DNA of 64,000 nt from an uncultured Actinomycetota bacterium. GTDB lineage: Bacteria; Actinomycetota; Acidimicrobiia; Spongiisociales; UBA4744. The position numbers and the translations under genes are program-made. Under the pieces are notes generated by a model, which worked only from the letters and a program-made list of their open reading frames with translations, ran no database searches and was not told where the DNA came from. Location of the stretch: NCBI GenBank assembly GCA_963723165.1, contig CAVRPP010000007.1:133513-197512 (forward strand), in the 5' to 3' direction. How positions within the stretch are numbered: the first letter of the stretch is position 1; every line of letters starts with the position of its first letter. Positions 1,294 to 45,350 of this stretch are shown here, piece after piece.

Positions 1294-1388
1294 AGAACAG
1301 TCAGTCTTGCACGGGAGGAGGGCGGCCCCACGGGCCGCCCTTCACGATCTGCCGGCGTCGCCGACCCGGATCGGTCGGTGGCCCATAT

Positions 1389-2861: not shown

Positions 2862-2929
2862 TGGGCAGACTCTATCGACTCGCCGCCCGTCCGATCGTCA
2901 GTCACTGATGCCGGCTGCCTGCTCTTGGT

Positions 2930-4097: not shown

Positions 4098-4423
4098 CGC
4101 CGCGAAATGGGCGATCTCGCCTGCGAAGTGGTTTCCGGGGACATGGATCCTCCGGGATAATCGATCAGTGGCGATTCGGAGGCTGAGGCGCGGCCATCGT
4201 GCCGGGCCGGGGCGGGCTCTCGGGCCAACCAACGGGCGTCGAACATGTCGCGCACGACTTTCCCGGTGTCGACAACGTCGCGATCCAACCCAACGCCATC
4301 CGTCGAGAGGCGAGCACGGACCGCCGCGAATGTCGTGTTGCCCGGGACGGGCGGGCTGGAGCGACTACGAAATGGCCGAATCGCTCTACTGCTGCCGACT
4401 GCCTGACGACTAACCTCCGCGCC

Positions 4424-5233: not shown

Positions 5234-5280
5234 GAGGGGACGCCGGGTCCGCCTCGGTCCGCTGTTTCCCGGATCACCAC

Positions 5281-6333
5281 TCAATCGAGGTCCGCCGGGA
5301 ACAGTCGATGGAGGGGCTCCAGAAGCCTGACCATGTCGGAGCTCGGAGGGCCCGCCACCCGGGCAACATCGTGAATCTCCGGGAGGTGTGGCAGCAGTAC
5401 CTTGGGCTCCAGGCCCAGCCAGTGGCGGGCGGCACGGACGGTATCTTCCCGACGGTCGGCGGGTACACGGTTGAGGACCAGAGCGGGGAGCGGCGCCGCC
5501 CAGGCCTCGACGGTTGCCGCCGCTCTCACCAAACCCTTGGGAGTTGCCTCGCACGTCAGGATCCGGGAAGCGGCCCGATAGAGCAAAGGATCGTCCGGTT
5601 CGCTCACTCCGAGGTCGACGACGATGCGGTCGAAGGTTCCCTCCGCAGCCTGGATGACCTCGTTGATCAGTGCAGAGGTGAGGGGACCGGAGTGGCGAAT
5701 CGGCGGGCCGGCCAGGAGCGACAGCGGTCCTATCCGACGAACCTCGGAGGGGAATACTCCGGACAGCAAGACCGCGTCGGCTGCGTGTGCAACATCAGGA
5801 GCGGGCAGCACCCCCAGCCTCACGGAGAGCGAAGGTCCCTGCCGGTCCAGGTCGATCAACAGGGTCGACCGTTGCTCGGCGAGACCCCACGCCAGACTGA
5901 GAGCAATCTCGGAAATGCCGGGGGCACCTCGACCGCCCGTGACCGTGATCAAGCTGCCGGACCCGACGGGGGCCGGGGGCGGCTGCCGCAACGTTCGGAC
6001 GATGTGGAGGATGCGGTCCGGGGGCGTTGAGTCGGGGAGCACCTCATCGGCACCGCCGACCGTAAGCAAGCGGCGGCCCGGTCGGTCGCTGGGCGGATAC
6101 AACCCCAACACTGCCGACCCGCCGCTTCGCCATTTCTTGATCACCGTGGGAGTGACCCAGGCAGTTTCGGCTCCGGCGATAATCACGTCGAGCTCGCCGG
6201 TTCGACGATCGAGGTCGGACGGTTGATGGGCTCGCGCTACCAAACGGACCATGCTGGTCGAGCGTGCCATGTCCGCGAACGTGGACTCCCAGGGGCGGGC
6301 AGAGAGAACGGTGGCGACCCGCGGACGGGTCAT
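5281..6333 (-). CDS. CpaE/TadZ-like (ParA/MinD superfamily) protein with degenerate Walker A; Ssd-like helicase/secretion-neighbourhood CpaE-like family
   Basis: Start MTRPRVATVLS sits at an ATGA overlap with the upstream gene. N-terminal receiver-like region, then TVTGGRGAPGIS in place of GGKGGVGKT, then a MinD-like fold. Confidence 0.7.
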   Translation of the reverse strand: MTRPRVATVLSARPWESTFADMARSTSMVRLVARAHQPSDLDRRTGELDVIIAGAETAWVTPTVIKKWRSGGSAVLGLYPPSDRPGRRLLTVGGADEVLPDSTPPDRILHIVRTLRQPPPAPVGSGSLITVTGGRGAPGISEIALSLAWGLAEQRSTLLIDLDRQGPSLSVRLGVLPAPDVAHAADAVLLSGVFPSEVRRIGPLSLLAGPPIRHSGPLTSALINEVIQAAEGTFDRIVVDLGVSEPDDPLLYRAASRILTCEATPKGLVRAAATVEAWAAPLPALVLNRVPADRREDTVRAARHWLGLEPKVLLPHLPEIHDVARVAGPPSSDMVRLLEPLHRLFPADLD

Positions 6334-6635
6334 GTGCTGGTCGATTGGATGACAACGATGTGCGCCAGGGCAAGGCACATGGTGATGCGGTTTGTCAGGA
6401 GGATCACGTGATCCACCCCGACGGCCGCGATGGTGCCGGTCCTGGTCTCGCCGTCGATGGTGGTGACCCGGACGGCTTCGTCCCGATCCTCGGCGTCCAG
6501 CAATCGATCGCGGATGGTGCTTCGTCGTCGCAACGTGATGGCCGCAGCCTCTTGCTCGGCGTTCAGGACCTCGGCCAGCTGCAGCCGCAAGCGGCGGGAG
6601 ATCTCGATGAGGTCGGGATGTTGTAGCGGATCCAT
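6330..6635 (-). CDS. Hypothetical protein translationally coupled to the CpaE-like gene
   Basis: RBS AAGGTG upstream of ATG at 6635. Stop overlaps the downstream start as ATGA. AT-rich promoter region upstream. Confidence 0.5.
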   Translation of the reverse strand: MDPLQHPDLIEISRRLRLQLAEVLNAEQEAAAITLRRRSTIRDRLLDAEDRDEAVRVTTIDGETRTGTIAAVGVDHVILLTNRITMCLALAHIVVIQSTST

Positions 6636-6770
6636 CGCACCTTAGAATATTGTCGAATACTCTCATCAAACGATAACTTCACACTATTCGATCGACAACT
6701 GATCCGTTCTGTTTTGTTTCGCGCCCCGGGTCCCTTGCTCATCTGCGCTGGTTCCCATAGCCTGGGGCCG

Positions 6771-6992
6771 ATGGACTGGATCGACGTCAACATCCCCAAG
6801 GAATGGCTTTCAGTAGCCGACATTTGCGAATACATGGATGTGTCTCCCTTCGTGGTCACCAGCGTGTTGCGAAGCGGCCGCCTGCCCGCGGTGAAATTCG
6901 GCCGGGAGTGGCGGGTCGCCCGGAAGGACTTTGAGGTGTGGCTCAACGAGGAACGCGCCAGAGCGGTGAGCCTGGAAGAGCCTCAGCACTGA
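6771..6992 (+). CDS. Excisionase-family (MerR-like) helix-turn-helix DNA-binding protein
   Basis: LSVADICEYMDVSPFVVTSVLRSGRLPAVKFGREWRV matches the excisionase-family HTH. Divergent from the CpaE-like operon. Confidence 0.55.
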   Translation: MDWIDVNIPKEWLSVADICEYMDVSPFVVTSVLRSGRLPAVKFGREWRVARKDFEVWLNEERARAVSLEEPQH

Positions 6993-7011
6993 ACCCTCGG
7001 AGTAACGTGAC

Positions 7012-7296
7012 GTGATGACGACTACGCCGCGCCACGACCAGGTCGGAGACACCCGGGTTGATCTGGATCGACCCTGGAACGTTGTCGTGTGGAACGACCC
7101 GGTCAATCTCATGACTTACGTCGCGTATGTGTTCAGGAAGCTTTTCGGTTTCTCCAAGGAGAAGGCGACCCGGCTGATGCTGCAAGTGCACAACGAAGGC
7201 AGGGCGATAGTCGCCACCGGTCCCCGCGAGAAGATGGAAATGGACTGCTTCCGACTTCACCGGCACGGCTTGTGGGCCACGATGGAACGAGTATGA
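7012..7296 (+). CDS. clpS: ATP-dependent Clp protease adaptor ClpS
   Basis: [27 protein letters not shown]...LMLQVHNEG is the canonical ClpS core. Confidence 0.9.
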
Positions 7297-7763
7297 AGGG
7301 TCCCTTCCGGCTCGTGGCTGGTCAAGTTGAGCTGAGTCTGGATTCCCGGGAGGCCAATGCTCTGTTGGCCGTTCCCGACCTGCTCGATTCGGTCGGCGCC
7401 ACCGGTGTGGATCCCGGAGCCGATCGCCTGGACCAGGCTCCGTACCCGGATGACAAAGAGGCGGCCGCGGAATACCGGCGGCTGATGGCCGACGAGATGG
7501 CACAATCCCGGGCCGCCGATCGTTCGGCCTTTTCGCTCACGGTTGAGCAATCCCCTGGCGGCGTGACCCTTTCGGCCGGTGAGGGTGAAGCATGGTTGCG
7601 CGTCCTTGCCGAGGCGCGCCTGGTTCTTGCTTCGCGGATGGACATCAGCGAGGACGGATGGGAAGACGACCTCCATGAGGATGATCCGGCGGTGGCCCTC
7701 CTCCACTATTTGGGGTGGCTCCAGCAGTCGCTGGCGGAGACTCTTGAAAGCACCCTGTTGTGA
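7293..7763 (+). CDS. DUF2017 domain protein (ClpS-associated)
   Basis: ATGA overlap with the clpS stop. Acidic 156 aa protein. clpS followed by a DUF2017 gene is a conserved actinobacterial arrangement. Confidence 0.65.
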
Positions 7764-8974
7764 TGGATCCGACGGTTGAGATCGATGTCCACGATATGGC
7801 GCACGGGGGTGAGGGTGTTGGTCGCCACGACGGCAAGGCCGTTTTTGTAGCCGGGGCCATTCCCGGCGAGCGAGTTCGCGTGACTCTCGTCACCGAGAAA
7901 AGGAACTGGGCCCGCGCCGATCTCGAAGAGGTGTTGACCCCGGTTTCGGCCAGGGCCGTGCCTCCCTGCCCGCACTTCGACGATTGCGGAGGGTGTCAGT
8001 GGCAGCACATGGCCAACGCCGAACAGCTGAAATGGAAGTCGGCGATCGTGGCCGGTCAGCTGCGTCACCTCGGCGGGGTTGTCAGGCCCGAAATCGCCCC
8101 GATCGTGAACTCGAGCGAGCCCTTTGGCTACCGCAACCGGATGACGTTCCACGTCGGGAACGGCCACCCCGGTCTGTATCGCCATCGCAGCAAACAGCTG
8201 GTTCCCATCTTCGCTTGCCTCTTGCTAGTCCCGGGTCTGAGGGAGTTGTACGGGCGGCTCGGCGACCTGTCGGGTGTGGATGAAATCACGCTGCGGATGG
8301 GCGTCACCACCGGAGAACGGGCTGTACTCATCCGTGGGCGGGTGCCCGAGCAGGCGGCGGAATGGAAGGCCTCCGTCGTCCGTCTGGCCGGCCGGCGATT
8401 CGAACCCGTGATCGGGCCACCCTCCATCCACGAGGCAGTCGGCGGCGTTCGCTTCAGGATCACCGGCCCGGCCTTCTTCCAGGTGAACACTGCCGGGGCC
8501 GAAACACTTGCCGAAATCGTTGGCGACGCTCTGCAACCCACCGGCTCAGACACGCTGCTCGACGCCTATGCCGGCGTCGGGCTGTTTTCTGCAACGGTCG
8601 GTAGGTCGGCGGGCAGGGTGATCGCAGTGGAATCGAGCGGAGTCGCCCTGGGCGACTTACGCCACAACCTGGGCGAGGCCGGGATTGCGAATCACGAGGT
8701 TGTGCGGGGGCGGTTCGAAGAGGTCGCCCCCGCTACATCATGGAGCATCGCGGTTTGCGACCCTCCCCGGACCGGGCTCGGCGAGCTTGGGGTCGCTGCT
8801 CTGGTGGGGGGAGCGCCGCGGCGCATCGCCTATGTCTCGTGCGACCCGGCCAGCCTGGCGCGAGACACACGAATGCTCGACGGGGCGGGTTATCGCTTGA
8901 AGAAGGTGACCCCGGTAGATCTGTTCCCGCAGACCTTTCACGTCGAAGCCGTGGCCGAATTCGAGCTCAAGTAG
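7763..8974 (+). CDS. TRAM-domain class I SAM-dependent RNA (uracil-5)-methyltransferase (RumA/RlmD-like)
   Basis: N-terminal TRAM domain, CPHFDDCGGCQWQH Fe-S cluster, SAM-binding fold and C-terminal catalytic CDPPR motif. Start overlaps the upstream stop. Confidence 0.85.
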   Translation: MDPTVEIDVHDMAHGGEGVGRHDGKAVFVAGAIPGERVRVTLVTEKRNWARADLEEVLTPVSARAVPPCPHFDDCGGCQWQHMANAEQLKWKSAIVAGQLRHLGGVVRPEIAPIVNSSEPFGYRNRMTFHVGNGHPGLYRHRSKQLVPIFACLLLVPGLRELYGRLGDLSGVDEITLRMGVTTGERAVLIRGRVPEQAAEWKASVVRLAGRRFEPVIGPPSIHEAVGGVRFRITGPAFFQVNTAGAETLAEIVGDALQPTGSDTLLDAYAGVGLFSATVGRSAGRVIAVESSGVALGDLRHNLGEAGIANHEVVRGRFEEVAPATSWSIAVCDPPRTGLGELGVAALVGGAPRRIAYVSCDPASLARDTRMLDGAGYRLKKVTPVDLFPQTFHVEAVAEFELK

Positions 8975-8980
8975 GCTCCT

Positions 8981-10543
8981 CTACGGAACCGTACAACCGA
9001 GCGCGTCCGGGGGAGTCTCCCGCCAGGTTCCGGGCCGCGGGATGAACGCATCGGCCAGCGCCGGGTCGAACTCGAAACCGGCGACGGCTGAAACGCTGGG
9101 TGGCCGGAAGTGAATCTCGAGACGGTTGCTCGAAACGTCCTTATCGCCGTACATGGCGCCGTAGATGGTGGTCTGGCTAGACGCTCCGAAGGTTCCGCCT
9201 GCATAGATCAAATGATGGATCTGGCCCTCAACAGAGTTGGCACTGTTGGCCATCGTGACATCGCTCGTTGGCTCGACCCCGGCGATCACCACGGTGGCCG
9301 GTGCCAGAGCCGGGTCGCTCACTCCGTTGGGTGTGCCGCGCACTTCGAGGTCGCCCTTGAACGCCAGCACGAAATCGCCTGCCAGGATCGCCTTGTCCAT
9401 GTTGAGAGTGAATGAGCCGGGATCGTTGACGAAGTGCGCTCCGGTCAGGGCCGAGTCGTTGGCCTGGTACCAGGTGTCGAACTGCGCCCAGGTGGCGTGA
9501 TTGAACACCGTCACACCGGCGTCGGTGTACTTGGTTGGATCCCACACGAAATTCGGCAGCGAGATTTGGGGCACCGGGGCGATGCCGGTGGCGTTCCACA
9601 CATACCCCGCCGCAGTGGGTGGAGTGTCAACTGTGGTGGAGGGCCCTGCCACCTGCAGGTTGCGGCCGACCGAAGACTGATTTCCTTTGAACTTCGACTT
9701 GACGAACCCCGATACGGCCGTGTCGTTGAGGATGATGACATCGGCGCCGTTGGTTCCAAACTTGCTGCCCTTGTTGTCCTGTACAAAGCCGTTGACCTTG
9801 GTTTCTCCTGCGATTTCGGCGTTGGCCCCGTTGCTGATGAGCAGGTCGCCGTAGACCAACATCTGGCCAACGCCCGGCGCACCATCATCATTCGGATAGA
9901 TGCGCGTGTAGTTGCCGATGGCCAGGTCGTCGCCGGAGTACGCATCGCCGTAGATCTCTTTCCGGTTGCCGGCCGTCAAGCCGCCCTCGGCGGCGAACAG
10001 GGCGTAGTAAAACCCGCCACCGATCGGGACGAGTTCGACTTCGATCACGACTTTCTTCGAGACTGCCTGCACGGCATTGTGGTTGGGCGCCCATCCCCAC
10101 GACTCGATCAGATACGACCGGGCGGAAGCCAGGGGAAGGGCGCGAACCCAGTACTCACCCTGAACGTCGTTGGTGCCGTCGATGACCGTCTCGAGGGTAT
10201 CCAGATCACAGGTAGTTCCGGTGATGCCGGTGGTGGCCATGCCCGCATCAGCGTCGTCTCGTATGCCCCCCTCGTTGGAGGCAAGCAGGTACATCATTTC
10301 GCGTGCGCCCGCCTCGGCCACGTTGACTGCAGTGGCCAGATGCCGGTCGTACCCGACTTCCTCCAATTCGTGGACCGAGACGGAGTACCAGGTTGCACCC
10401 AGGATGAAGATCACGACGGCCACCGAAAGAGCCGAGGCAATGCCGATCCCGTCATCGTCAAGCAGCAGCTTCTTGAACAAGGCTTTCATGCTGGTGATAT
10501 CGGCACCCCGTGGTCGATTCTGGAGCAGGTCCTCGGCGTTCAT
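8981..10543 (-). CDS. Membrane-anchored large secreted protein with TadE/TadG-like N-terminal hydrophobic segment
   Basis: ATG at 10543 overlaps the stop of the upstream pilin-like gene (ATGA). N-terminus DDDGIGIASALSVAVVIFILGA resembles the Tad-like N-terminal helix. Rest is Gly/Asn/Thr-rich and probably extracellular. Confidence 0.5.
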   Translation of the reverse strand: MNAEDLLQNRPRGADITSMKALFKKLLLDDDGIGIASALSVAVVIFILGATWYSVSVHELEEVGYDRHLATAVNVAEAGAREMMYLLASNEGGIRDDADAGMATTGITGTTCDLDTLETVIDGTNDVQGEYWVRALPLASARSYLIESWGWAPNHNAVQAVSKKVVIEVELVPIGGGFYYALFAAEGGLTAGNRKEIYGDAYSGDDLAIGNYTRIYPNDDGAPGVGQMLVYGDLLISNGANAEIAGETKVNGFVQDNKGSKFGTNGADVIILNDTAVSGFVKSKFKGNQSSVGRNLQVAGPSTTVDTPPTAAGYVWNATGIAPVPQISLPNFVWDPTKYTDAGVTVFNHATWAQFDTWYQANDSALTGAHFVNDPGSFTLNMDKAILAGDFVLAFKGDLEVRGTPNGVSDPALAPATVVIAGVEPTSDVTMANSANSVEGQIHHLIYAGGTFGASSQTTIYGAMYGDKDVSSNRLEIHFRPPSVSAVAGFEFDPALADAFIPRPGTWRETPPDALGCTVP

Positions 10544-11187
10544 GGGCAATTGGCCGAGTTGGGGGTCCAGATGTTTCGACCCGAGATCTCTGTTGTACCG
10601 AGCCGGGCGTTGATCCGGTCGTTGATGTTCTGATCGACCCAGATCCGGATGGTGATGACCTTTCCCTGGGAAGGAAGCGCCGACGCCACCCCACCCTGGT
10701 TGGTGAACACGGGCACTCCGACCGTTCCCAGTGGCCGGCCCACTTTGGTGTTGTAGTCGTCGTCAACGATGGTCTCGTTCTGGACCCCGCCGATCACGGT
10801 GCGCCAGGTGACGCCATCGTCTGAGGATCGTCGCAAGTCGGTGGCTTGTCCGTCGCCGTCGTCGTCGCGGAGTTCGTAGATGAGGTCAACAAAACCCACG
10901 GCACTGGTGGTGGCCGTGTAAGCGCGAGTGCGGAATTCCAACCGATCGGAATCGAAGCCGGGGAGCGGGTCGCACACTCGTTCGGCGCTCCGAAAGTCGC
11001 GGTCCAGCTGCTGCAGAACGAGGCGAACGTCGTCGTTGGAGCGTGCGGTACCCTCCAGGTCACGGGTGGCGAACATCGTGGTTCGTAGCAGGGACAGGAA
11101 GACGGCCGCGACAATCGTCATCAGCATCATGGCCACCATCAGCTCGGCGAGGGACAGGCCACGATCTGAGCGGTGCAGGCGGCTCAT
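10540..11187 (-). CDS. Prepilin-type N-terminal cleavage/methylation domain protein (pseudopilin-like)
   Basis: Internal start MSRLHRSDRG|LSLAELMVAMMLMTIV matches the G|xxxxE prepilin motif followed by a hydrophobic helix. TGATG junction with the upstream gene. Confidence 0.6.
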   Translation of the reverse strand: MSRLHRSDRGLSLAELMVAMMLMTIVAAVFLSLLRTTMFATRDLEGTARSNDDVRLVLQQLDRDFRSAERVCDPLPGFDSDRLEFRTRAYTATTSAVGFVDLIYELRDDDGDGQATDLRRSSDDGVTWRTVIGGVQNETIVDDDYNTKVGRPLGTVGVPVFTNQGGVASALPSQGKVITIRIWVDQNINDRINARLGTTEISGRNIWTPNSANCP

Positions 11188-13118
11188 CAGCTGGCATCCG
11201 GATCGATGTAGAGAGCCGTGACCCCGACTCCGCCCAGGTCGAAGGTGAGGTTGACGTTGTAGAGGGTGCCGTCCAAGAGGAGGTCGGCGTCGACCAGGGT
11301 GTCGACCACGCGGTAACTGATGTTTCCGGTAACCATCCCCGTGGCCTGGAATCGAGCTTCGGAAACGTCCATGTTGGTGTCTTCGGTGTAGGACCGACAC
11401 GGCGTGCGGACCAGAATCGACCCCTGGATCTCGTAGTGCAGTTGAGGGTCACCGCTCGGTGTGATATCCCAGGTGAGCGGCCCGCCGGCACCGTCGCCGA
11501 TGTCTATTACGTCTGGTGCCGGAAGAGCCGAGCAACTCCCGATAGCACCAAATCCTGAGTAGATGGTGACGTATTTGCCGGGAGGGGATGGATCCCAGAC
11601 CTTGATGATCACATCCCCGCTGGTGGACACTGCGGGCGGACGGGCCGCATTCTGACCTGCAGCGAGATCGGTGCCGGATAACCGAGGGGTCTCAACAATG
11701 ACCCAGCCTTTGAACTTGTTGTTCTCCAGCGGGCCGACCGAGTCCGGGAAGAGGTAGATAGGCTCGCCCTCCCAGCTGTAGTCAATGCGCACCTGGCGGT
11801 CGGTGGAGGGAGAAGGAGCGTTGTAGCGGTCGACATTGGCCGAATAGTCGAGCGCCGGGCCGACGGAATCGTGTCCGCGGGCAACAAATGCGAATTCGTA
11901 GAACGCGGCATCCAAAGACGCGCCCAGTTTTGCTTCATACAAGGTGCGAACCGCAGCGTCCGAGTATTCGATGAAGCCCCCGTTGGTGCGGTCGGCCGAA
12001 ACCAACCCGAACCCGGCATATGGCAGGCCATCTACTTTCGGGTCCAGGCCCGTCGGGTTGTATTCGGTCCACAGCTCGGCCCAATACTCGCTGGCTTTCG
12101 GAGCCAGGAGGTTGGTGAGGTCGGCGACATTGAAGTCGTAAGGGTGGGCGCCGCTGATCTGAAATGGGGGCGGCAGGGTGGTCAGGATAGCGTTGGAGTC
12201 GTCCAAGGGTGCGGTCGAGACTGCGTCGTCATCGGCTGCTCGCAGCACGTCAACCGGTTCCGGACGAACAATGACATCGTCGGCGGTATTGAACAATCCG
12301 TCCGGCCCGGCGTACCTCACCTCTCCGGAGGTGGCCGAGCTTCGCACGATCTCGGATGAGATGTAGTCGCTGGTACCGGAGACAAACCCGTCTGAGAAGA
12401 CAAGATTTGCCTGGAAAAGCCCTCGTGGAGCTGCCACCCAGGCGCGGGATCCGCTCACATCGCCGGTTACGGTCAGCGAGCCACCGTCCATCGTCACCTC
12501 GCCGTGCATGAGCGGCTGCGACGGCTCGGTGAAGGGAGAAACGAGGGTGGAGAGGCGCACGTCGTGCGGCAGGCCGCCGGGAGCTTGCCAGGCAACCATG
12601 GAGGTTATGCGCCGGTACTTCTCGGTGGCCGGATCGAGCGGATCCGTCCGCACCGACGTCACGAACAAGTAGCGGTCGAAGTCGGTGTTATCTCGCGTTT
12701 GGAGATCGTGAAACGAGAGGAACGGGTCGAAGGTTGCTCCGTTCACGAAGACGATCTCCTCCCCTCCAAAATCCCAGTTGCTTGTCAATGGGTTCAATGT
12801 CAGGTCGGTGCCGAAGACACCCGTGACCGGGTCGCTGAACGTCGTACAGCCGACCTCGGTCGGACAGGTAGTTCCGTTGGCGAGTGATGTCAGGCCCATG
12901 TGATTCCACTCGAGCGACCGGGCCCTTTCCAGTAACTCCGAAGCGAAAGCCGTTGCCGACGCCTGGCGTTTGGTCTCGACGATGACGCGGGTTCCCGTGT
13001 CCATGGTTCGCAGCAGGGCGACTACCAGAGCGAAAACGATGGCCAGCGCCACGACCGACTCGACAATCGTGAACCCTGATTCCCCGTGCAACCGCGCGGC
13101 AAAGCGCTTCCCAATCAT
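11187..13118 (-). CDS. Large (643 aa) prepilin-type N-terminal domain protein (giant pseudopilin / tip-adhesin-like)
   Basis: N-terminus ESG|FTIVESVVALAIVFALV is a near-canonical type IV pilin G|FTLIE motif. The long C-terminal region is beta-rich and extracellular-looking. Confidence 0.6.
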   Translation of the reverse strand: MIGKRFAARLHGESGFTIVESVVALAIVFALVVALLRTMDTGTRVIVETKRQASATAFASELLERARSLEWNHMGLTSLANGTTCPTEVGCTTFSDPVTGVFGTDLTLNPLTSNWDFGGEEIVFVNGATFDPFLSFHDLQTRDNTDFDRYLFVTSVRTDPLDPATEKYRRITSMVAWQAPGGLPHDVRLSTLVSPFTEPSQPLMHGEVTMDGGSLTVTGDVSGSRAWVAAPRGLFQANLVFSDGFVSGTSDYISSEIVRSSATSGEVRYAGPDGLFNTADDVIVRPEPVDVLRAADDDAVSTAPLDDSNAILTTLPPPFQISGAHPYDFNVADLTNLLAPKASEYWAELWTEYNPTGLDPKVDGLPYAGFGLVSADRTNGGFIEYSDAAVRTLYEAKLGASLDAAFYEFAFVARGHDSVGPALDYSANVDRYNAPSPSTDRQVRIDYSWEGEPIYLFPDSVGPLENNKFKGWVIVETPRLSGTDLAAGQNAARPPAVSTSGDVIIKVWDPSPPGKYVTIYSGFGAIGSCSALPAPDVIDIGDGAGGPLTWDITPSGDPQLHYEIQGSILVRTPCRSYTEDTNMDVSEARFQATGMVTGNISYRVVDTLVDADLLLDGTLYNVNLTFDLGGVGVTALYIDPDAS

Positions 13119-13174: not shown

Positions 13175-13519
13175 TCAGTGCGGCAGGGGTTCCAGGTCGA
13201 TCGGGAGCCCGGCTTGATGCCAGGCGATGATGCCGCCGGCCAGGTTGAGGACATTCTCCATCCCGGCCTCACGCATGAGGGCTGCAACGGCCATAGCGGA
13301 ACGGTTGCCCGACCGGCATTGCAGGATAACCGTACGGTCTCGCGGCAACTCCTCGAACCAGTCGTTGATCTCCGAAAGGGGCATGAACTCGGCTCCGGGG
13401 ATGCGGACTTCCTCCCATTCGTCGGCTTCGCGAATGTCCACCATCAGAGCTCCGGCAGCCATTAGGCCGGAAGCCCCGGTCGGATCGGTTTCGGGTACGC
13501 CCCCGAAGAGGTCGGTCAT
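13175..13519 (-). CDS. Single-domain rhodanese (sulfurtransferase)
   Basis: Active-site loop CRSGNRS and rhodanese fold motifs. Confidence 0.8.
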   Translation of the reverse strand: MTDLFGGVPETDPTGASGLMAAGALMVDIREADEWEEVRIPGAEFMPLSEINDWFEELPRDRTVILQCRSGNRSAMAVAALMREAGMENVLNLAGGIIAWHQAGLPIDLEPLPH

Positions 13520-18657: not shown

Positions 18658-19188
18658 TCAGGCGGTGGTGGTCGCCTTCTTGGCTACCGGCTTTTTGGCT
18701 GCGGTGGTCTTGGCTACCGGCTTTTTGGCTGCGGTGGTCTTGGCTACCGGCTTTTTGGCTGCGGTGGTCTTGGCTACCGGCTTTTTGGCTGCGGTGGTCT
18801 TGGCTACCGGCTTTTTGGCTGCGGTGGTCGCCTTGGCAACGGGCTTCTTGGCTGCGGTGGTCGCCTTGGCGGGTGCTTCCTTCTCGCCTACGGGCCGGAA
18901 GGACGACCGCCAGTTGCTCAACATGTCGTCGAGCTGCTCTCGGAGCTTGCCAACCTGCTCCTGGATCTGGTCGAAGTCCATCTTGGCGCCGATGTCCTCC
19001 ACGAAGTCCTCAACCATCGTGCGGTCGGTGACCTTCGTGACGACTTTCTCGCCTTCCTTGGCCCATACGTCGTAGTCCTTGGTGAGCTTTTCGCTCATCT
19101 CGTTGACGCGTTCCGACAACTTGCGAGCGGTGACGACGGGAACGCCCACTGCTGCGTAGAGCACTTTCTTGGTCGTGTCGACAATCAT
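18658..19188 (-). CDS. HbhA-like / phasin-family coiled-coil protein with C-terminal Lys/Ala/Pro-rich repeats
   Basis: N-terminal phasin/HbhA-like coiled coil. Six AKKPVAKTTA repeats at the C-terminus. ATGA coupling to the upstream XRE gene, as in the mycobacterial Rv0474-hbhA pair. Confidence 0.75.
   Translation of the reverse strand: MIVDTTKKVLYAAVGVPVVTARKLSERVNEMSEKLTKDYDVWAKEGEKVVTKVTDRTMVEDFVEDIGAKMDFDQIQEQVGKLREQLDDMLSNWRSSFRPVGEKEAPAKATTAAKKPVAKATTAAKKPVAKTTAAKKPVAKTTAAKKPVAKTTAAKKPVAKTTAAKKPVAKKATTTA
18661..18873. repeat. 30 bp tandem direct repeat (5 perfect copies plus degenerate copies) encoding the Lys-rich C-terminal repeats
   Basis: tggctaccggctttttggctgcggtggtct is repeated head-to-tail from 18681 to 18830, flanked by diverged copies. 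Confidence 0.9.
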
Positions 19189-24548: not shown

Positions 24549-25649
24549 TCACGGCCCCGGCAAGACGTCGACGATGACGTCCTGATTGGCGGCCAGTTCC
24601 TCAGGGAGCACTTTGTCTGCCGTCAGGAACAGCGACTCGTTGCCGTGGCACGAGTCACATGAGGCGTTCTGCAGTGTGTTCCGCTGGATGTTGTGGGGTG
24701 TGGCCGGAGCAAATGTCGGCCGGGCATCGAACTCGGGGAGCAGGTTCGTCCCGTAGAACGAGAAGCTGTCCGGGTCGATGGGCACATGACGTACCACTGT
24801 GTAGCTCCAGGGTCGCTGCTCTGTGGGCTCGGCGTTCTTGCCGATGTAGAACGCCATTTCCGACGGTTCGATCTTGAAGTACGGCGTACCTGCATCCGAC
24901 GTCTGCACGTGGCAGCTGTAGCAGTTCTTGTAGTCGACCGAATGGCATACCTGACACGACAGGTTTGCCGAATGGATCGAGTGCTGCTGGTTGCCATCTG
25001 CCCCGCCTTCGACATCCGGGTGACAGTCGACGCATTCGACGGCCGCATCGTCGTAGCGATGCTCCTGTTCGGGAACGTCCCCATGCATCTCCGCAGCACC
25101 GTGACAGTCGAAACACGCCATGCCGCCGGGGTTGAAGTGGACGTCGGCGGGATACATACCGCCGTCTGCCGTCGCGTTCTTACCCTTGTACTCGTCGTTG
25201 ATCCGGCTCCCGTGGCAGCCCGTGCAGGTCAGGTTCATCGGTGGCGGATTCTTGAACGAGTGACCGTCAAGGAGTCCGCCCCCGGCGCTGGTCGGCCGGC
25301 TCACATGGCACTGGCCGCACGACGTGTGGCAACCGGCGCAATGATTCTCGAAGGCCAGCTCCAATCCGGGTGAGAGCTCCTCGCTGCCGGTCCTTTCGGC
25401 CAAAACGGTCAGGTAACCGTCGAGGGTCGAGTGCAGGCTCATCGCTTCGGTGGTGCTGATGTCGTTGTGGCAGCTGGCGCACGTCTCGATGGAGTTCGGG
25501 TCTCGGACCATGCCGGTGTGGGCGGCCTCTATCCCGTTCGCCTGGCCATCACCACCGTGGCAGGCGATACAGCCGAGAGCTCCGTGAGTTGTCTCAAAGA
25601 AAGCGTCGTCACTGACGAAAACCTGTTCCCATGCCTCTAACTGAGGCAC
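24549..25649 (-). CDS. Decaheme c-type cytochrome (no signal peptide of its own)
   Basis: Ten CxxCH motifs in 366 aa. GTG start preceded by GGAGG. In frame with the upstream lipoprotein heme gene across one TGA. Confidence 0.8.
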   Translation of the reverse strand: MPQLEAWEQVFVSDDAFFETTHGALGCIACHGGDGQANGIEAAHTGMVRDPNSIETCASCHNDISTTEAMSLHSTLDGYLTVLAERTGSEELSPGLELAFENHCAGCHTSCGQCHVSRPTSAGGGLLDGHSFKNPPPMNLTCTGCHGSRINDEYKGKNATADGGMYPADVHFNPGGMACFDCHGAAEMHGDVPEQEHRYDDAAVECVDCHPDVEGGADGNQQHSIHSANLSCQVCHSVDYKNCYSCHVQTSDAGTPYFKIEPSEMAFYIGKNAEPTEQRPWSYTVVRHVPIDPDSFSFYGTNLLPEFDARPTFAPATPHNIQRNTLQNASCDSCHGNESLFLTADKVLPEELAANQDVIVDVLPGP

Positions 25650-25658
25650 TGAACCTCC

Positions 25659-25964
25659 TCAGCCTTCACCTTCGCTGAGGGTCTCGGTGGCCACGGGTTC
25701 CACGGCCATGGCTTGCAGGGTGGCTTTGTCGGTGTGGCAGACGACACAACTGGCGTCGGCCGCCGCGGATGGGTCGGTAGTGGTCGTTGTCTGGACAGCA
25801 GTGGTAGTAGTTGTTTCCGGCGCCGTAGTCTCACTCGAAGTTGTCGTGTCATCGGCACCGCTGGTGCAACCGGCGGCCAGGAGGCCGACGAGCATCACGC
25901 CAAACACGGATAGGGTTGCTTTTCTCATCTCACCTCCTTTGGAGGAGGAGGGGCGCCGGAACAC
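25659..25964 (-). CDS. Lipoprotein with Thr-rich linker and one c-type heme motif (CVVCH)
   Basis: Start at MRKATLSVFGVMLVGLLAAGC (lipobox) with RBS AAGGAGGTG. Thr/Ser linker. One CxxCH. Confidence 0.7.
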   Translation of the reverse strand: MFRRPSSSKGGEMRKATLSVFGVMLVGLLAAGCTSGADDTTTSSETTAPETTTTTAVQTTTTTDPSAAADASCVVCHTDKATLQAMAVEPVATETLSEGEG

Positions 25965-25985
25965 CGACGCCCCTCTACCGGAGGG

Positions 25986-27065
25986 TTATCCGGTGACCGT
26001 CGGGTAGTCGGGGGCGGAGCTGAACGGCGTTTGGGCCAAGATGTCGACGTCGTCGGTCCAGCCCATCATTCCGAACTTCATGTTGATGACGTCGTAGCCG
26101 AGCAGTTTAAGGGCAGTAGCCGCTACCTGGCCGGTGTGGCCGGTGTAGCAGTACACCATGATTGGCTGATCGGTCGGCAGCGAAGGCAGGTTGGCCGTGT
26201 CGGCGATCTCTTTCCAGTAGATATTGATGGCCCCTTCGACATGCCCCAGGTCATACGACTCGGCGGCTCGCACGCTCACGACGAAGTAGTCGTTGGAATC
26301 GTCACCATCCGCCATGTTGTCGAACAGTGCCGACGCTCCCGCAACGGGCGTCCAGTCGGCCAGCATGGCCCGGGCGGAGGCGAGAGCAATGGCCGAAGCC
26401 TCGGTCTCACCGGTAGCCAGGACCGGAAGGTCGTAGGTTTCGGTGGCAACGGTTGGCTCGGTGACGGTCGGATAGCCGGGGGAAGTTGTGAAGGGGGTGG
26501 TTGCCACGACGTCGAGGTCGTTGGTCCAGCCCATCATCCCGTACTTCATGTTCTGGACGTCATAACCCAGCAACTTCAGCAACGTTGCGGCTACCTGGCC
26601 GGTGTGACCGGTGTAGCAGTAGACCACGATCGGTTGATCGGTGGGCAACTGGGCCAGGCTGTCCTCGTCGACGATGGTTTTCCAGGGGATGTTGATGGCC
26701 CCTTCGATATGACCGAGCGCGTAGGCGTCGGGGGCCCGCACGCTGACGACGAACGGATCGTTGGAGTCGTCACCGTCGGTCAGGTTCTCGTAGAGGGCGT
26801 CGGCGCTGATGACCGGCTTCCACTCAGTCAGCACAGCATTGACATGCTCGGCGAGCACCAGCTCCTCGGCGACCATGGCCTCCGTGGTGGTCGGCGCTTC
26901 GGTGGTCGTCGTGGCTTCGGTGGTCGTCGTTGTGGCCTCGGTTGTGGCCGGCGCCGCAGTAGTGGTGGTCTCTTCAGCCGCGTCGTCGGCACATCCCGCC
27001 AGCACGATCATGCTGAATACCGTGAACACCGCCAGCAGCTTGAAGACTTTGGTTCTCCGTGACAT
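25986..27065 (-). CDS. Tandem-rhodanese lipoprotein (two rhodanese domains, each with a CYTGH active-site loop)
   Basis: Lipobox VLAGC with RBS AAGGAG. Thr-rich linker. Two duplicated domains of about 150 aa with VYCYTGHTGQ. Confidence 0.85.
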   Translation of the reverse strand: MSRRTKVFKLLAVFTVFSMIVLAGCADDAAEETTTTAAPATTEATTTTTEATTTTEAPTTTEAMVAEELVLAEHVNAVLTEWKPVISADALYENLTDGDDSNDPFVVSVRAPDAYALGHIEGAINIPWKTIVDEDSLAQLPTDQPIVVYCYTGHTGQVAATLLKLLGYDVQNMKYGMMGWTNDLDVVATTPFTTSPGYPTVTEPTVATETYDLPVLATGETEASAIALASARAMLADWTPVAGASALFDNMADGDDSNDYFVVSVRAAESYDLGHVEGAINIYWKEIADTANLPSLPTDQPIMVYCYTGHTGQVAATALKLLGYDVINMKFGMMGWTDDVDILAQTPFSSAPDYPTVTG

Positions 27066-27076
27066 CAGGTTGCTCC

Positions 27077-27094
27077 TTGTGAAACAATTCACAA
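27077..27094 (-). promoter_or_regulatory. Perfect CRP/GlxR-type palindrome TTGTGAA-TTGT-TTCACAA (TGTGA-N6-TCACA) abutting the rhodanese RBS
   Basis: Seen directly in the sequence. The AAGGAG RBS overlaps its 3' end and the ATG follows 12 nt later. Confidence 0.45.
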
Positions 27095-31450: not shown

Positions 31451-34396
31451 TCAATCCTTATAGAACCGCTCCTCAACCAGTCGCCGCGCCCTCCTGGTGA
31501 GCCGCCGGTATTCCTCACGAACCGACGATCGCGGGGCGTCGAAACGGCCCAGAGAGAGAGCCAGGCGGGACAACTCATCCTGATCGGTCGGAAGCGAATC
31601 GACCGGGCGGCCGTATTGCAGGAACAAGCGGTTCCGGACGGTTCCGCAGAAGCGGTAAGCGGCGACCAGATCACGAGCGGCCGACGACGGCAGGCGGCCG
31701 GCCTCGGTGAGCACTTCGAGCGCAGCCTCCGTTCCCTGGGTGCGCAGATCGGGGTTCCGGCTCCCAAACCGCATCTGATGGAGCTGGACGAGGAATTCGA
31801 TGTCGTTCATGCTGCCTTTGCCGAGTTTGAGGTGGAAGTCCGGATCCTCGCCGGGCCCGAGCCGTTCCCGTTCGATGCGGGCTTTCATGGTGCGGATGGC
31901 GCGGATGGCGTCGGGGTTGAGGGTTTCGGGGTAGACGTGGGGGGCGATGAGTTGGGTGAATTGTTCTCCGAGGTGGGGGTCGCCGGCGGCAGGGCGGGCT
32001 TTGATCAGCGATTGGAATTCCCAGGTTTGGGCCCATTTGTCGTAGTAGCCGGCGTAACCGTCGAGGGAACGGGCCAGCGGACCGTTCTTGCCTTCCGGCC
32101 GGAGGTCGGCGTCGACCCTGAAGGCGGCCCCTTCGGGAGTGACTTTGCCGAGGGCGGCCATGAACTCGGCGGCGGTCTTGTTGGCGTAGAGGCGGACCTG
32201 TTCGGGGTCTGCCCCGGCGGGGGGGTCGTAGACGAACAGCATGTCGATGTCGGAGGAGTAGTTGAGTTCTTGTCCTCCCCATTTGCCCATGGCGATCACG
32301 GTGAAGGGGACGGCGGGCAGGTCTTTGAAGGTGGGGGAGCGTCGCAGTTCCTCACCAACGGCGGCCAGAGCGGCCGCTGCGGCGGCGTCGGCGGTGTCGG
32401 CCAGGTCCCGGCCCACTTCGGGCATCGTTGCCTGCCCCAACAAATCCCGCACCGCGATCCACAACAACCTCCGCCGCACAAACCGCCGCACCGCCCGGAA
32501 TCGTTCGGGATAGCTACTTCGCAGCAACACCCTCTGGGTGGCGTTATTGACGAGCTCCGCTTTGGTCGGCAGGGCTGCCAGTGCCCGGTCGTCTCCCAGC
32601 CTGGTGAGAAACTCGGGGATCCGGTCGAGCATCTGTCCGAGAAGGCGGCTGGTTCCCAACAACCGGCACAGGCGTTCGGCCGCGACGGGCGCATCACGGA
32701 GGGTGCCGATCAGTGCCGCATTGTCGGGGAGGGAGGTCACGAGGAGCCGCAGCTGCTCGAGACCGAGGTCCGGGTGGGGGGCGTCCGACAGCCAGTCCAT
32801 CATCAGCGGCAACAGCTGCTGCATCAGCCGGGAGCGTCGCGACAACCCGGTGGTCAACTCGGCCAGTGCCCGTTGAGCCGCTTCGGCGTCCTGGAAGCCG
32901 AGTACAGCTAGTTGACGAGCCGCGCCTTCGGGTGACAGATGCACGGTGGGCGAGGCGGCAAAGGCCTCAAGCAACGGTCGATAGAAGAGGCGCTCGTGAA
33001 TGGTGCGGATGGTTGCGCGGTGCCGCACCAATTCCTCCTCGAAGTGGTCGAGAGCGTCGTGCTGCTCGTCGTCCCGGAATCCCATGCTTTTCGCCAGGCG
33101 GGTCCGCGAGGGCCGGTCCTCCGGCAGCGTGTGGGTCTGCTGCAGATCGTATATCTGGATGCGATGCTCGAGGTTGCGCAACCACTCATAGGAAGCGGCC
33201 AGATCCCGGGCATCATCGTCGCGTACGTAGTCGTGTTCCCCGAGGGTCACGAGCACGTCCAGAGTGCTCGGTGAACGCAACGCCTCGTCGAAGCGGCCGT
33301 GGACGAGTTGGAGCAATTGCACGGCGAACTCGACGTCCCTGATTCCCCCGAATCCCCGCTTGATCTCAGAGTACGAAACCCCGCTTTCCTCGGCCCGACC
33401 CTCGATGCGGGCTTTCATGGTGCGGATGGCGCGGATGGCGTCGGGGTTGAGGGTTTCGGGATAGACGTGGGGGGCGATGAGTTGGGTGAATTGTTCTCCG
33501 AGGTGGGGGTCGCCGGCGGCAGGGCGGGCTTTGATCAGCGATTGGAATTCCCAGGTTTGGGCCCATTTGTCGTAGTAGCCGGCGTAACCGTCGAGGGAAC
33601 GGGCCAGCGGACCGTTCTTGCCTTCCGGCCGGAGGTCGGCGTCGACCCTGAAGGCGGCCCCTTCGGGAGTGACTTTGCCGAGGGCGGCCATGAACTCGGC
33701 GGCGGTCTTGTTGGCGTAGAGGCGGACCTGTTCGGGGTCTGCCCCGGCGGGGGGGTCGTAGACGAACAGCATGTCGATGTCGGAGGAGTAGTTGAGTTCT
33801 TGTCCTCCCCATTTGCCCATGGCGATCACGGTGAAGGGGACGGCGGGCAGGTCTTTGAAGGTGGGGGAGCGTCGCAGTTCCTCACCAACGGCGGCCAGAG
33901 CGGCTGCTGCGGCGGCGTCGGCGGTGTTGGCCAGGTCCCGGCCCACTTCGGGCATCGTTGCCTGCCCCAACAAATCCCGCACCGCGATCCACAACAACCT
34001 CCGCCGCACAAACCGCCGCACCGCCGTCAGGCGCCCGGCAGGGGAGTCGCCGTCGACCGGTTCATCCAGCTCCGGCACCTCCGCCGGTCTGAACCAATCG
34101 GGTTTGGCCCGAACCGTTGAGGCGAGAGCCCGGCTCGAACCGGTAATGGCCACGAGGGCCCGGCCGACGACGGGATCATCGAGCGCCTCTTCGGCCAACC
34201 GGGGTGCTGCTTCGAGGATGGCGATGATCCGGTCCAGGGTCGGTCCGGGTTCAGGCCCGTGCCGTGCCGTCCGCAACAACTCCCGGGCCGGTGGCGCGAC
34301 GAGCCCGTCCTCGCCGATCCACCCGACCGCGGCAAAACGCGGCACGAGTGGTTCGGCAATTCCGAGACGGGCCGGCGAAGCGTCGGTGGTCATCAA
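31451..34396 (-). CDS. glnE: Bifunctional glutamine synthetase adenylyltransferase/adenylyl-removing enzyme
   Basis: 981 aa with two GlnE nucleotidyltransferase halves (GKWGGQELNYSSDIDMLFVY twice). Confidence 0.9.
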   Translation of the reverse strand: MMTTDASPARLGIAEPLVPRFAAVGWIGEDGLVAPPARELLRTARHGPEPGPTLDRIIAILEAAPRLAEEALDDPVVGRALVAITGSSRALASTVRAKPDWFRPAEVPELDEPVDGDSPAGRLTAVRRFVRRRLLWIAVRDLLGQATMPEVGRDLANTADAAAAAALAAVGEELRRSPTFKDLPAVPFTVIAMGKWGGQELNYSSDIDMLFVYDPPAGADPEQVRLYANKTAAEFMAALGKVTPEGAAFRVDADLRPEGKNGPLARSLDGYAGYYDKWAQTWEFQSLIKARPAAGDPHLGEQFTQLIAPHVYPETLNPDAIRAIRTMKARIEGRAEESGVSYSEIKRGFGGIRDVEFAVQLLQLVHGRFDEALRSPSTLDVLVTLGEHDYVRDDDARDLAASYEWLRNLEHRIQIYDLQQTHTLPEDRPSRTRLAKSMGFRDDEQHDALDHFEEELVRHRATIRTIHERLFYRPLLEAFAASPTVHLSPEGAARQLAVLGFQDAEAAQRALAELTTGLSRRSRLMQQLLPLMMDWLSDAPHPDLGLEQLRLLVTSLPDNAALIGTLRDAPVAAERLCRLLGTSRLLGQMLDRIPEFLTRLGDDRALAALPTKAELVNNATQRVLLRSSYPERFRAVRRFVRRRLLWIAVRDLLGQATMPEVGRDLADTADAAAAAALAAVGEELRRSPTFKDLPAVPFTVIAMGKWGGQELNYSSDIDMLFVYDPPAGADPEQVRLYANKTAAEFMAALGKVTPEGAAFRVDADLRPEGKNGPLARSLDGYAGYYDKWAQTWEFQSLIKARPAAGDPHLGEQFTQLIAPHVYPETLNPDAIRAIRTMKARIERERLGPGEDPDFHLKLGKGSMNDIEFLVQLHQMRFGSRNPDLRTQGTEAALEVLTEAGRLPSSAARDLVAAYRFCGTVRNRLFLQYGRPVDSLPTDQDELSRLALSLGRFDAPRSSVREEYRRLTRRARRLVEERFYKD
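31872..32495. repeat. Intragenic direct repeat copy A (624 bp, about 99.5% identical to copy B) inside glnE
   Basis: Aligns base for base with 33402..34025 (offset 1530 bp) with 3 mismatches. Identical antisense ORFs confirm the offset. Confidence 0.9.
33402..34025. repeat. Intragenic direct repeat copy B inside glnE
   Basis: See copy A. Confidence 0.9.
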
Positions 34397-44306: not shown

Positions 44307-45350
44307 ATGGCGGAGAAACTGACTGAGTTCTCGCACGGCAGCGGCTGAGCATGCAAGCTCGGTCCTGACGAGCTGGCGCAGGTCTTGCGCCCTTTGCACA
44401 ACCATCCAACCACCCTCCACCCCGACCTGGTCGTAGGTTTGTCCTCCGGGGACGATGCCGGGGTCCTACGGCTGCCCGACGGACGCCTGATGGTGCAGAC
44501 GGTTGACTACTTCACGCCGGTGGTCGACGACCCTGGCGATTGGGGCCGGATCGCCGCGGCCAATGCACTGTCCGATGTCTACGCCATGGGAGGGACGCCA
44601 TCAACCGCTCTGCAGCTGATCGGTTGGCCCCGCGGGACGCTGTCCTTTGATCTGCTCGGTGAGGTGATTCTCGGTGGAATCGGCAAACTCGAGGAAGCCG
44701 GCTGTCTGCTGATCGGTGGCCACTCGATCGATTCCCCCGAACCAACATACGGCTTTGCGGTCACCGGATTTGTCGAACCGGATCATCTCACTACCAACGG
44801 GGGAGCCCGTACCGGCGACCGCCTCGTCCTCACCAAGCCGATCGGTACCGGGATCATTTCGACCGCCATCAAGAACCACAAGGCCAATCCCGGGATGATC
44901 GTTGAAGCGATCAGCGTCATGGCAGAGCTCAATGCGGGGGCGGCCCGGGCAATGTCCGCCGTGGGTGTCAACGGGGCGACGGACGTGACGGGCTTCGGGC
45001 TGCTCGGCCACCTCGGAGAGATGGTGGCCGCCAGCGGAGTGGCCGCAATCATCCGGCACGCCGCCGTGCCGCTGATCGACGGCGTACGCGACCTGGCCCT
45101 GGCCGGTGTGGTCCCTGGAGGCACGGCACGGAACCTGGTTGCTGTGGAACGGTTTACCGATTTCGGGAACCTCAACGCGGCCGATCAGCTGATCCTGGCC
45201 GACGCTCAGACCAGTGGCGGCCTCCTGATTTCGGTGGCCGCCGACCGGACCCGCGATCTGGTCGAAGCACTGACCAGCGAGGGGACGAGAACCGCGGCCG
45301 TCGTTGGCGAGATTACCGGGGATCAACCCGGCACGATCGCCGTCCGCTAG
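44307..45350 (+). CDS. selD: Selenide, water dikinase (selenophosphate synthetase), selenocysteine-containing form
   Basis: ATG after GGAAAGGAGG. Reads MAEKLTEFSHGSG-U(TGA 44346..44348)-ACKLGPDEL and continues in frame into ORF 44385..45350. A hairpin AGCUCG-GUCCUGA-CGAGCU starts 8-9 nt after the UGA. Confidence 0.9.

Follow-up and report, generated by a model that had tools for sequence, protein, structure and literature searches.

A tandem-rhodanese lipoprotein encoded beside a predicted selenocysteine-containing undecahaem cytochrome in an uncultured Acidimicrobiia bacterium

Two genes and an in-frame TGA

In a stretch of 64,000 nucleotides (nt) from an uncultured Actinomycetota bacterium of the class Acidimicrobiia (contig CAVRPP010000007.1, positions 133,513 to 197,512; hereafter the window), the minus strand encodes a lipoprotein with two rhodanese domains followed by a multihaem c-type cytochrome. 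The original prediction, made from the sequence alone, had placed three genes here: a rhodanese, a monohaem cytochrome and a decahaem cytochrome. The locus instead has two genes, probably in one operon (Table 1). The supposed monohaem (25659-25964) and decahaem (24549-25649) open reading frames (ORFs) are one frame with a single TGA between them, and the junction reads ...LSEGEG-TGA-GGSVPQLEAWEQ.... Comparative evidence points to this TGA as a codon for selenocysteine (Sec); it had been overlooked as such although a Sec-type selD had been noticed in the same window. The one and the ten CXXCH motifs counted on its two sides are real, but they do not belong to separate cytochromes.

The product of the first gene carries, as foreseen, two rhodanese domains (two PF00581 stretches, E 3.7e-32) together with a signal peptide, the lipobox LAGC (Cys25) and a Thr-rich linker. 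Both domains have the catalytic loop CYTGHTG and, with an active-site Cys loop in each, the protein is predicted to be a catalytically competent rhodanese. Its ATG (27065) is preceded by AAGGAG 7 nt upstream, and the ATG of the cytochrome (25928) by AGGAGG 5 nt upstream. A terminator scan of the gap between the genes predicted no terminator-like site, which is consistent with one operon. In the window and in close Acidimicrobiia relatives the flanking genes are of housekeeping type (aromatic amino-acid synthesis, helicase, amidohydrolase), and the rhodanese-cytochrome pair alone is conserved as a unit.

The cytochrome starts with a signal peptide and the lipobox AAGC (Cys21), continues through a Thr-rich linker to haem 1 (C61VVCH) and U90, and ends in a region with ten CXXCH. 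This makes eleven motifs, one upstream and ten downstream of position 25659. Pfam matches are to Cytochrome_C7, c3_2 and MtrC_II-IV, and the fused protein combines its CXXCH motifs with an N-terminal signal peptide and lipobox, as expected of a c-type multihaem cytochrome. Signal peptide, lipobox and linker all lie in the piece 5' of the TGA; the 'decahaem' piece has none of the three. The proposal that every product of the locus has a Thr-rich linker thus holds for the rhodanese and the upstream cytochrome piece, but not for the decahaem part. Since c-type cytochromes need to be exported before haem is attached, the latter cannot stand alone. Spirochaete homologs offer no start codon that would keep haem 2, and continuous full-length homologs are known with a sense codon where the window gene has TGA. 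Both lipoboxes were assigned by pattern only ([LVI][ASTG][GA]C); one is found in most homologs of both the cytochrome and the rhodanese.

Table 1. Positions in the window of the rhodanese-cytochrome locus and of two related genes
Feature	Position	Strand	Evidence
Tandem-rhodanese lipoprotein gene, 359 residues	25986..27065	-	ORF and translation, Pfam PF00581
Predicted Sec undecahaem cytochrome lipoprotein gene, 459 residues	24549..25928	-	Same frame across TGA, 11 CXXCH
Rhodanese domain 1 loop CYTGH, Cys150	26604..26618	-	Loop kept across phyla
Rhodanese domain 2 loop CYTGH, Cys306	26136..26150	-	Loop kept across phyla
In-frame TGA, predicted Sec codon (U90), motif SEGEG-U-GGSVPQLEAWE	25659..25661	-	TGA at homologous position, 46/46 loci
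SECIS-like hairpin GUGCCUC-AGUUA-GAGGCAU, GUU in apical loop	25631..25649	-	Fold and covariation
Haem-1 motif CVVCH, His 25 residues before Sec90	25734..25748	-	Spacing conserved in family
Intergenic gap, 57 nt, with cytochrome Shine-Dalgarno	25929..25985	-	Rhodanese stop to cytochrome start
selD, TGA at 44346-44348, motif GSG-U-ACK	44307..45350	+	In-frame TGA read from sequence
Single-domain rhodanese	13175-13519

Comparative evidence for a selenocysteine codon

Homologous loci, 46 in all, were taken from representative genomes of the GTDB and cover Acidimicrobiia, Anaerolineae and other Chloroflexota, Nitrospiraceae, Spirochaetota and Syntrophomonadaceae. Every one of them has an in-frame TGA at the homologous position and none has TAA or TAG. 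Upstream of the TGA there is always a signal peptide with a single CXXCH, and the distance from the haem-1 His is 21-30 residues, mostly 25. In addition, a homolog search yielded 1,774 clusters at 90% identity. Among the matches listed, nearly all are about 361-370 residues long and start at the same ...LEAWE... point, which indicates truncation at the same codon. On these comparisons the conservation of the in-frame TGA is far beyond chance.

Just 3' of the TGA lies a hairpin that resembles a selenocysteine insertion sequence (SECIS). In the window gene it begins 12 nt past the U of UGA, places GUU in the loop at about +20 and folds with -23.4 kcal/mol (z -2.4). Nearly all loci have a hairpin at the same distance despite differing encoded peptides (PPLEAW, APEFSA, GPQLGG). 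In a 47-sequence alignment 90.3% of cells are paired and six of eight pairs show compensatory change; none of 500 shuffles reaches the observed values, and slid registers give 38-50% pairing. In two close homologs with a sense codon, P0091 (TTG, Leu) and P0071 (TGG, Trp), the hairpin is degraded. An Rfam scan of the window matched no families, and nothing for SECIS.

An exhaustive search over 1.84 billion representatives gave 527 relatives at 50% identity, and the residue at the Sec column was tallied in 39 full-length relatives that span the junction as continuous proteins. Cys is found in about 15 of them in the same G-C-GG context (GEG-C-GG in P0182, GGG-C-GG in P0205 and P0237), and the codons TGC and TGT were verified in Cys-type members. 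Others have His (3-4), Trp (about 8) or, in a few cases, Met, Tyr or Leu. The Cys homologs were recovered solely through this search; a junction-spanning query of 69 residues returned just 27 small N-terminal fragments.

The Trp variants matter for an explanation in which UGA is read through without Sec, for instance by near-cognate Trp or as regulated termination, so that a short monohaem lipoprotein and a full-length Trp cytochrome would be made side by side. The roughly eight representatives have TGG at or next to the position, and the codon is genuine in P0071, P0155 and P0158, so that mistranslation of TGA under an alternative code was rejected as their source. Yet TGG is also the easiest one-step escape from TGA, and Cys rather than Trp is the commonest replacement in distant clades. 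Moreover, the hairpin with its GUU loop is kept only in genes that contain TGA, the Sec machinery is encoded right beside the cytochrome gene in related loci, and the selD of the window itself uses UGA for Sec. We therefore consider read-through of this kind hardly credible.

That the window organism decodes UGA as Sec is indicated by its own selD, a selenophosphate synthetase gene correctly recognised earlier as Sec-type, which carries an in-frame TGA within GSG-U-ACK. The 64-kb window itself has no selA, selB or tRNA-Sec by ORF survey and, for the tRNA, ARAGORN. Among the other loci, five contain tRNA-Sec, with selA and selB immediately upstream of the Sec-cytochrome. One of them (L035, 1365-7573) has the order selD, tRNA-Sec, selA, selB, Sec-cytochrome, rhodanese; in four Sphaerochaetaceae-type loci tRNA-Sec, selA and selB are directly upstream. 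In spirochaete metagenome-assembled genomes (MAGs; L037, L039, L045 and L046, about 1300-9300) a self-contained cassette runs from an optional rhodanese through tRNA-Sec, selA, selB and the Sec-cytochrome to ResB and CcsA. The latter two lie directly downstream of the Sec-cytochrome in nine spirochaete loci, while Syntrophomonadaceae have ccm genes upstream. The gene order suggests that spirochaetes carry their Sec and maturation machinery mainly for this one protein, and the cassette may be horizontally mobile. That the whole system, from rhodanese to CcsA, travels through Sphaerochaetaceae as a self-sufficient unit is a tentative extension of this idea.

A separate observation concerns the Syntrophomonadaceae locus L043. 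About 2.5 kb downstream of its Sec-cytochrome are two adjacent ORFs on the same strand (9540-10154 and 10203-12617), one with a twin-arginine translocation signal and an iron-sulfur (FeS) Cys motif, the other 804 residues long and molybdopterin-oxidoreductase-like by eye. The pair looks like a candidate formate-dehydrogenase-type selenoprotein split at an in-frame stop.

With an in-frame UGA, a SECIS-like hairpin and Cys homologs, the cytochrome gene has every comparative feature by which a bacterial selenoprotein would be recognised. We are highly confident that the cytochrome is one Sec-containing protein and that the rhodanese is its dedicated partner.

The same data weigh on the view that monohaem and decahaem cytochromes are separate after all and act as a conduit for extracellular electron transfer (EET) to minerals, comparable to OcwA of Thermincola, with the TGA a true stop or the Sec incidental. 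The Pfam match to MtrC/MtrF domains II/IV, the low ratio of peptide to haem and the lipoprotein anchor with its cell-wall-spanning linker would suit such a conduit, and in Acidimicrobiia a GGAGG right after the TGA, followed by GTG, is a conceivable site of re-initiation. We tried and rejected this three-gene arrangement: the downstream part has no export signal, the TGA is universal, and the GGAGG consists merely of Gly-Gly codons that are absent from the spirochaete, Syntrophomonadaceae and Nitrospiraceae homologs. The covarying hairpin and the Cys homologs also speak against it, and in mineral reduction there is nothing for the obligate rhodanese partner to do. The comparative data have already largely refuted this reading, and we give it very little probability.

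Haem ligation, the rhodanese partner and putative chemistry

The rhodanese is a regular companion of the cytochrome. A secreted rhodanese adjoins it on the same strand in about 40 of the 46 loci, upstream in Acidimicrobiia, Chloroflexota and Sphaerochaetaceae and downstream in Ardenticatenia, Nitrospiraceae, one Spirochaetes bin and Syntrophomonadaceae. The number of domains is 2, 4 or 5, and each domain carries the loop CY(T/S)G(H/Q)T; the only exceptions are the single-domain rhodaneses of L034 and L035. In some cases the two are fused. P0204 carries a C-terminal and P0158 an N-terminal tandem rhodanese, and in L020 (2612-5569) an ORF of 985 residues that immediately precedes the Sec-cytochrome combines four CYTGHTG rhodanese domains with a 12-haem cytochrome, which has a hydrophobic segment at its N-terminus. 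The original prediction had named orthologous clusters of unrelated neighbours as a ground for giving it up; the comparison comes out for linkage.

The partner is also seen beside Cys-type members. A tandem rhodanese lipoprotein with the loops CYSGQSA and CYTGQTS lies directly downstream of P0205, and the start of a rhodanese-like lipoprotein follows P0180. No rhodanese accompanies P0091, P0157 or P0155, the Leu-, His- and Trp-type members examined; they stand beside NrfC/NrfD and other cytochromes. The presence of a rhodanese thus seems to track a chalcogen residue, Sec or Cys, at this column.

How might Sec act in such a protein? Apart from the haem motifs, ten His are invariant (H115, 137, 166, 223, 264, 282, 316, 319, 381 and 412), and U90 is invariant alongside them. 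All ten are also present in the variants with Cys, His, Trp or Leu. As there are 11 haems and ten invariant non-motif His, one haem is left without a conserved distal His. The family has no conserved free Cys other than the lipobox Cys; one motif is CX4CH in many Chloroflexota members. By this count Sec or Cys would be the only conserved candidate to ligate, or sit over, the remaining haem, with the caveat that Met231 and Met270 are also largely conserved.

A bolder proposal is that Sec90 is the distal axial ligand of that haem. The haem would then be the first natural c-type haem with His/Sec ligation and the catalytic centre that reduces persulfide or polysulfide borne by the rhodanese, in a previously unrecognised and widespread class of multihaem selenoenzymes. 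The proposal builds on the ligand count, on the Cys, His or Met that other clades have in the same column, all of them able to ligate haem, and on the lack of a conserved Cys that could ligate the haem instead, as one does in MccSep (see below). We hold it as a speculative idea that is rather unlikely to be right in full.

Structural comparison adds some information on the scaffold. For the Leu-type homolog P0091, AlphaFold2 gave a model of moderate quality (predicted local distance difference test score, pLDDT, 68.9), and Foldseek found no matches to it in the PDB. A single-protein sequence search of the PDB gave nothing beyond cytochrome c7 at E 0.8, while the family profile matched PDB sequences weakly, namely the N-terminal haems of HAO (E ~1e-5), ONR and NrfA. 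On the strength of these weak matches the cytochrome scaffold is placed as a putative distant member of the catalytic HAO/NrfA/OTR-type multihaem superfamily.

Three cytochrome-type selenoprotein families are listed in a 2026 review: ExtKL (NF040886), GSU2204 (NF041027) and OTR (TIGR04315) (PMC13188914). Membership in any of them was rejected, since the window protein and 12 diverse members match none of the three models, with NF040886 giving no match at E<=1. The best NCBIfam matches of the cytochrome are local, far below threshold and to generic multihaem models, such as ExtM ('selenite/tellurite reduction operon'; 29.6 bits against a cut-off of 800) and the GSU2203 decahaem model (17 bits against 325). 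For the rhodanese protein, the ExtH model NF040901 is not among its 21 NCBIfam matches at E<=0.01. OTR (PDB 1sp3), whose model has annotated selenoprotein members, has 8 haems in place of 11, and neither TIGR04315 nor the 1sp3 sequence was matched by the family at the sequence level. Our literature searches found no description of this 11-haem Sec-cytochrome family.

The closest precedent is MccSep/ExtKL (GSU2937-2936) of Geobacter sulfurreducens, a five-haem cytochrome with an in-frame UGA and with Sec in a C-terminal Ig-like domain next to a His/Cys-ligated haem; a conserved Cys ligates haem 2 in that family. Work from 2026 demonstrated that it is the polysulfide (and selenite) reductase on which S0 respiration depends (PMC13510729). 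Its gene belongs to the extHIJKLMNOPQS cluster, which opens with the gene of the rhodanese-like lipoprotein ExtH (PMC5877670). Similarly to MccSep, the protein described here is an extracytoplasmic multihaem c-type cytochrome that is split in annotations by a Sec UGA, has a SECIS-like hairpin just 3' of it, is encoded near a secreted rhodanese-like lipoprotein and has coexisting Sec- and Cys-type members. However, the two share no detectable sequence relationship in the NF040886 comparison (13 members), and they differ in haem number (11 versus five). The Sec site is near the N-terminus, 25 residues after haem 1, in G-x-G-U-G-G, and not in DGUP of a C-terminal Ig-like domain; the window cytochrome is a lipoprotein with a Thr-rich linker, and no porin is involved. 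Their distribution differs as well, MccSep being found mainly in Desulfobacterota and Nitrospirota and the present family in Acidimicrobiia, Chloroflexota, Spirochaetota, Syntrophomonadaceae and Nitrospiraceae; the family's phyla go unmentioned in the MccSep paper (PMC13510729). The locus may thus be the functional analogue, among monoderm and other bacteria, of Geobacter ExtH and MccSep, with a cytochrome scaffold unrelated to that of MccSep.

Two further systems are instructive. In Wolinella succinogenes a periplasmic rhodanese-like protein, Sud, transfers polysulfide sulfur to the quinol-dependent polysulfide reductase Psr, which has an NrfD/PsrC-type anchor. The concept of a secreted rhodanese-fold carrier that hands sulfane sulfur to a membrane-linked reductase would be shared; the reductase there, however, is a molybdopterin enzyme and not a haem selenoprotein, and the Sud loop differs. 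OcwA of Thermincola potens, a nonahaem terminal reductase of the NrfA/OTR class with non-bis-His haems as putative active sites (PMC7096707), is likewise a surface-exposed multihaem cytochrome of a monoderm bacterium. In contrast to the window cytochrome it lacks Sec, a rhodanese partner and the same lipoprotein architecture, and it is not among the fold or sequence matches of the family.

From these comparisons we propose that the pair would work as an extracytoplasmic chalcogen reductase, with the rhodanese anchored in the membrane and facing outward. Its Cys would capture sulfane sulfur as a persulfide, from polysulfide, elemental sulfur or thiosulfate and possibly as selenium from selenite-derived species. 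The persulfide would then be presented to Sec90, whose flexible, Gly-rich loop would lie next to the one haem that lacks a conserved distal His. Attack by Sec90 on the persulfide or polysulfide would give a Se-S intermediate, and electrons arriving through the 11-haem chain would cleave the Se-S bond and release sulfide. The hairpin directly downstream would help Sec insertion at the UGA (25661-25659).

The family most likely acts on sulfur or selenium compounds outside the cell. Sulfur chemistry is suggested by the weak profile similarity to the catalytic cytochromes HAO, ONR and NrfA and by the precedent of MccSep, encoded in one cluster with the rhodanese ExtH. The outward-facing module proposed originally, for sulfur, thiosulfate or selenium redox or for EET, thus stands on its chalcogen side, with a pairing conserved across phyla, whereas a pure EET role is less likely than chalcogen chemistry. 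To sulfane-sulfur or polysulfide reduction as the physiological reaction we assign a little less than an even chance. For the explanation as a whole, which blends the nearly certain identity with this more doubtful reaction, our confidence is modestly better than even.

Conserved neighbours hint at the source of the electrons. Ten Chloroflexota loci have an NrfC-like FeS protein, NrfD and a multihaem cytochrome of about 296 residues (Pfam c7/c3-type) upstream, which would evidently supply quinol-derived electrons. In Sphaerochaetaceae (L041, 1057-4108; also L036, L042 and L046) we observed a 688-residue NDH-2-like pyridine-nucleotide-disulfide oxidoreductase and a polyprenyl-synthase-like gene ahead of the rhodanese and Sec-cytochrome; these could be a minimal NADH-to-quinone input for the module.

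The same pair could also run oxidatively, with thiosulfate, sulfide or persulfide oxidized in a TsdA/SoxAX-like manner, as an adduct bound to Sec or haem, and the electrons passed into the respiratory chain of aerobic or microaerobic Acidimicrobiia. Acidimicrobiia loci have no adjacent quinol dehydrogenase, rhodaneses use thiosulfate as a textbook sulfur donor and the only neighbour by fold is OTR. Enzymes of the TsdA and OTR types can run in both directions, and haems with a chalcogen ligand take part in thiosulfate oxidation (discussed in PMC13510729). But the Chloroflexota module is wired to NrfCD, usually a quinol dehydrogenase that feeds reductases, and family members are found in lineages with a strictly fermentative or anaerobic life (Sphaerochaetaceae, Syntrophomonadaceae, Anaerolineae), which would have more use for an electron sink. 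MccSep, the only multihaem selenoenzyme that has been characterised, is also a reductase. An oxidative role is accordingly a minority view, improbable but to be taken seriously.

Less probable still, in our judgement, is a primary role as selenite or tellurite reductase or in selenium acquisition, in which the rhodanese would bind selenium as a perselenide and the Sec-cytochrome would reduce selenite extracellularly, for detoxification or for the supply of selenide to SelD. Selenite is a further substrate of MccSep, and the ext cluster of Geobacter was originally tied to selenite and tellurite reduction (PMC13510729, PMC5877670). The spirochaete gene sits inside a selC-selA-selB(-selD) cluster, and ExtM is the best, though weak, NCBIfam similarity. 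Against this, selenite is the poorer substrate for MccSep, environmental selenium is scarce relative to sulfur, the need to make this selenoprotein accounts just as well for the adjacent sel genes, and the ExtM score is far below its cut-off.

Several observations count against the proposed sulfur-reducing selenoenzyme and its mechanism. Variants with Trp, Leu, Tyr or Met at the Sec column keep all haems, so the residue must be dispensable for some role of the scaffold. The Cys-type P0182 has no rhodanese neighbour. Polypeptide amounts to about 4.5 kDa per haem, a value typical by rule of thumb of electron-transfer and not of catalytic cytochromes (PMC7096707). The family lacks a conserved haem-ligating Cys that could partner Sec, which means that the MccSep mechanism is not directly transferable. 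In the P0091 model the loop that matches the Sec site has a pLDDT below 50, and the Sec-haem geometry cannot be derived from it. Finally, neither Ccm/ResBC cytochrome maturation genes nor an NrfCD or other quinol-oxidizing module were found in the 64-kb window.

Other features of the window and biological meaning

The window has further features of note. The second, single-domain rhodanese that had been reported is present (Table 1). A GlnE-like ORF (glutamine synthetase adenylyltransferase-type; 31451-34396, minus strand) contains a direct repeat of at least 300 nt with 100% identity, its copies 1530 nt apart (31872-32171 and 33402-33701); in the protein about 230 residues are duplicated almost exactly. 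These are far more alike than the two natural nucleotidyltransferase domains of GlnE normally are, and a recent duplication, gene conversion or an assembly artefact could be the cause. At 18678-18862 a 30-nt tandem repeat of 6.1 copies (94% matches; consensus TCTTGGCTACCGGCTTTTTGGCTGCGGTGG) lies where there is no convincing gene. The start of the window cuts a plus-strand ORF (21-866), the C-terminal part of a CCG-domain Fe-S oxidoreductase (HdrD/GlcF/TfrB-like) with weak similarity to the NCBIfam model 'diclust_near_Sec'.

Present annotations reflect the split gene. NCBI entries from MAGs read 'hypothetical protein' or 'multiheme c-type cytochrome' and are always truncated at the TGA. The Joint Genome Institute (JGI) labels many truncated cytochrome fragments 'thiosulfate/3-mercaptopyruvate sulfurtransferase', a name probably transferred from cytochrome-rhodanese fusions such as P0204. 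Sec-type members are thus systematically mis-annotated as a tiny lipoprotein and a signal-less 'decahaem' protein, which argues for a new curated model that lets annotation pipelines join both ORFs.

Multihaem selenoenzymes were established experimentally only in 2026, with MccSep behind the sulfur respiration of Geobacter. The locus described here reveals what appears to be a second, widespread family, unrelated in sequence to MccSep and of different architecture, and the numbers of clusters and representatives given above demonstrate its abundance in public data. Its hosts, among them Acidimicrobiia, Anaerolineae and other Chloroflexota, Sphaerochaetaceae and Syntrophomonadaceae, are groups whose sulfur and selenium respiration is poorly understood. 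If the proposal is true, it would offer a natural test case for Sec-haem chemistry and for the hand-off of sulfur from a rhodanese to a selenoprotein, and it would explain why some fermentative spirochaetes keep Sec machinery and a cytochrome maturation system beside one gene. It would also give these groups a molybdenum-independent route for the reduction of extracellular sulfane sulfur or selenium.

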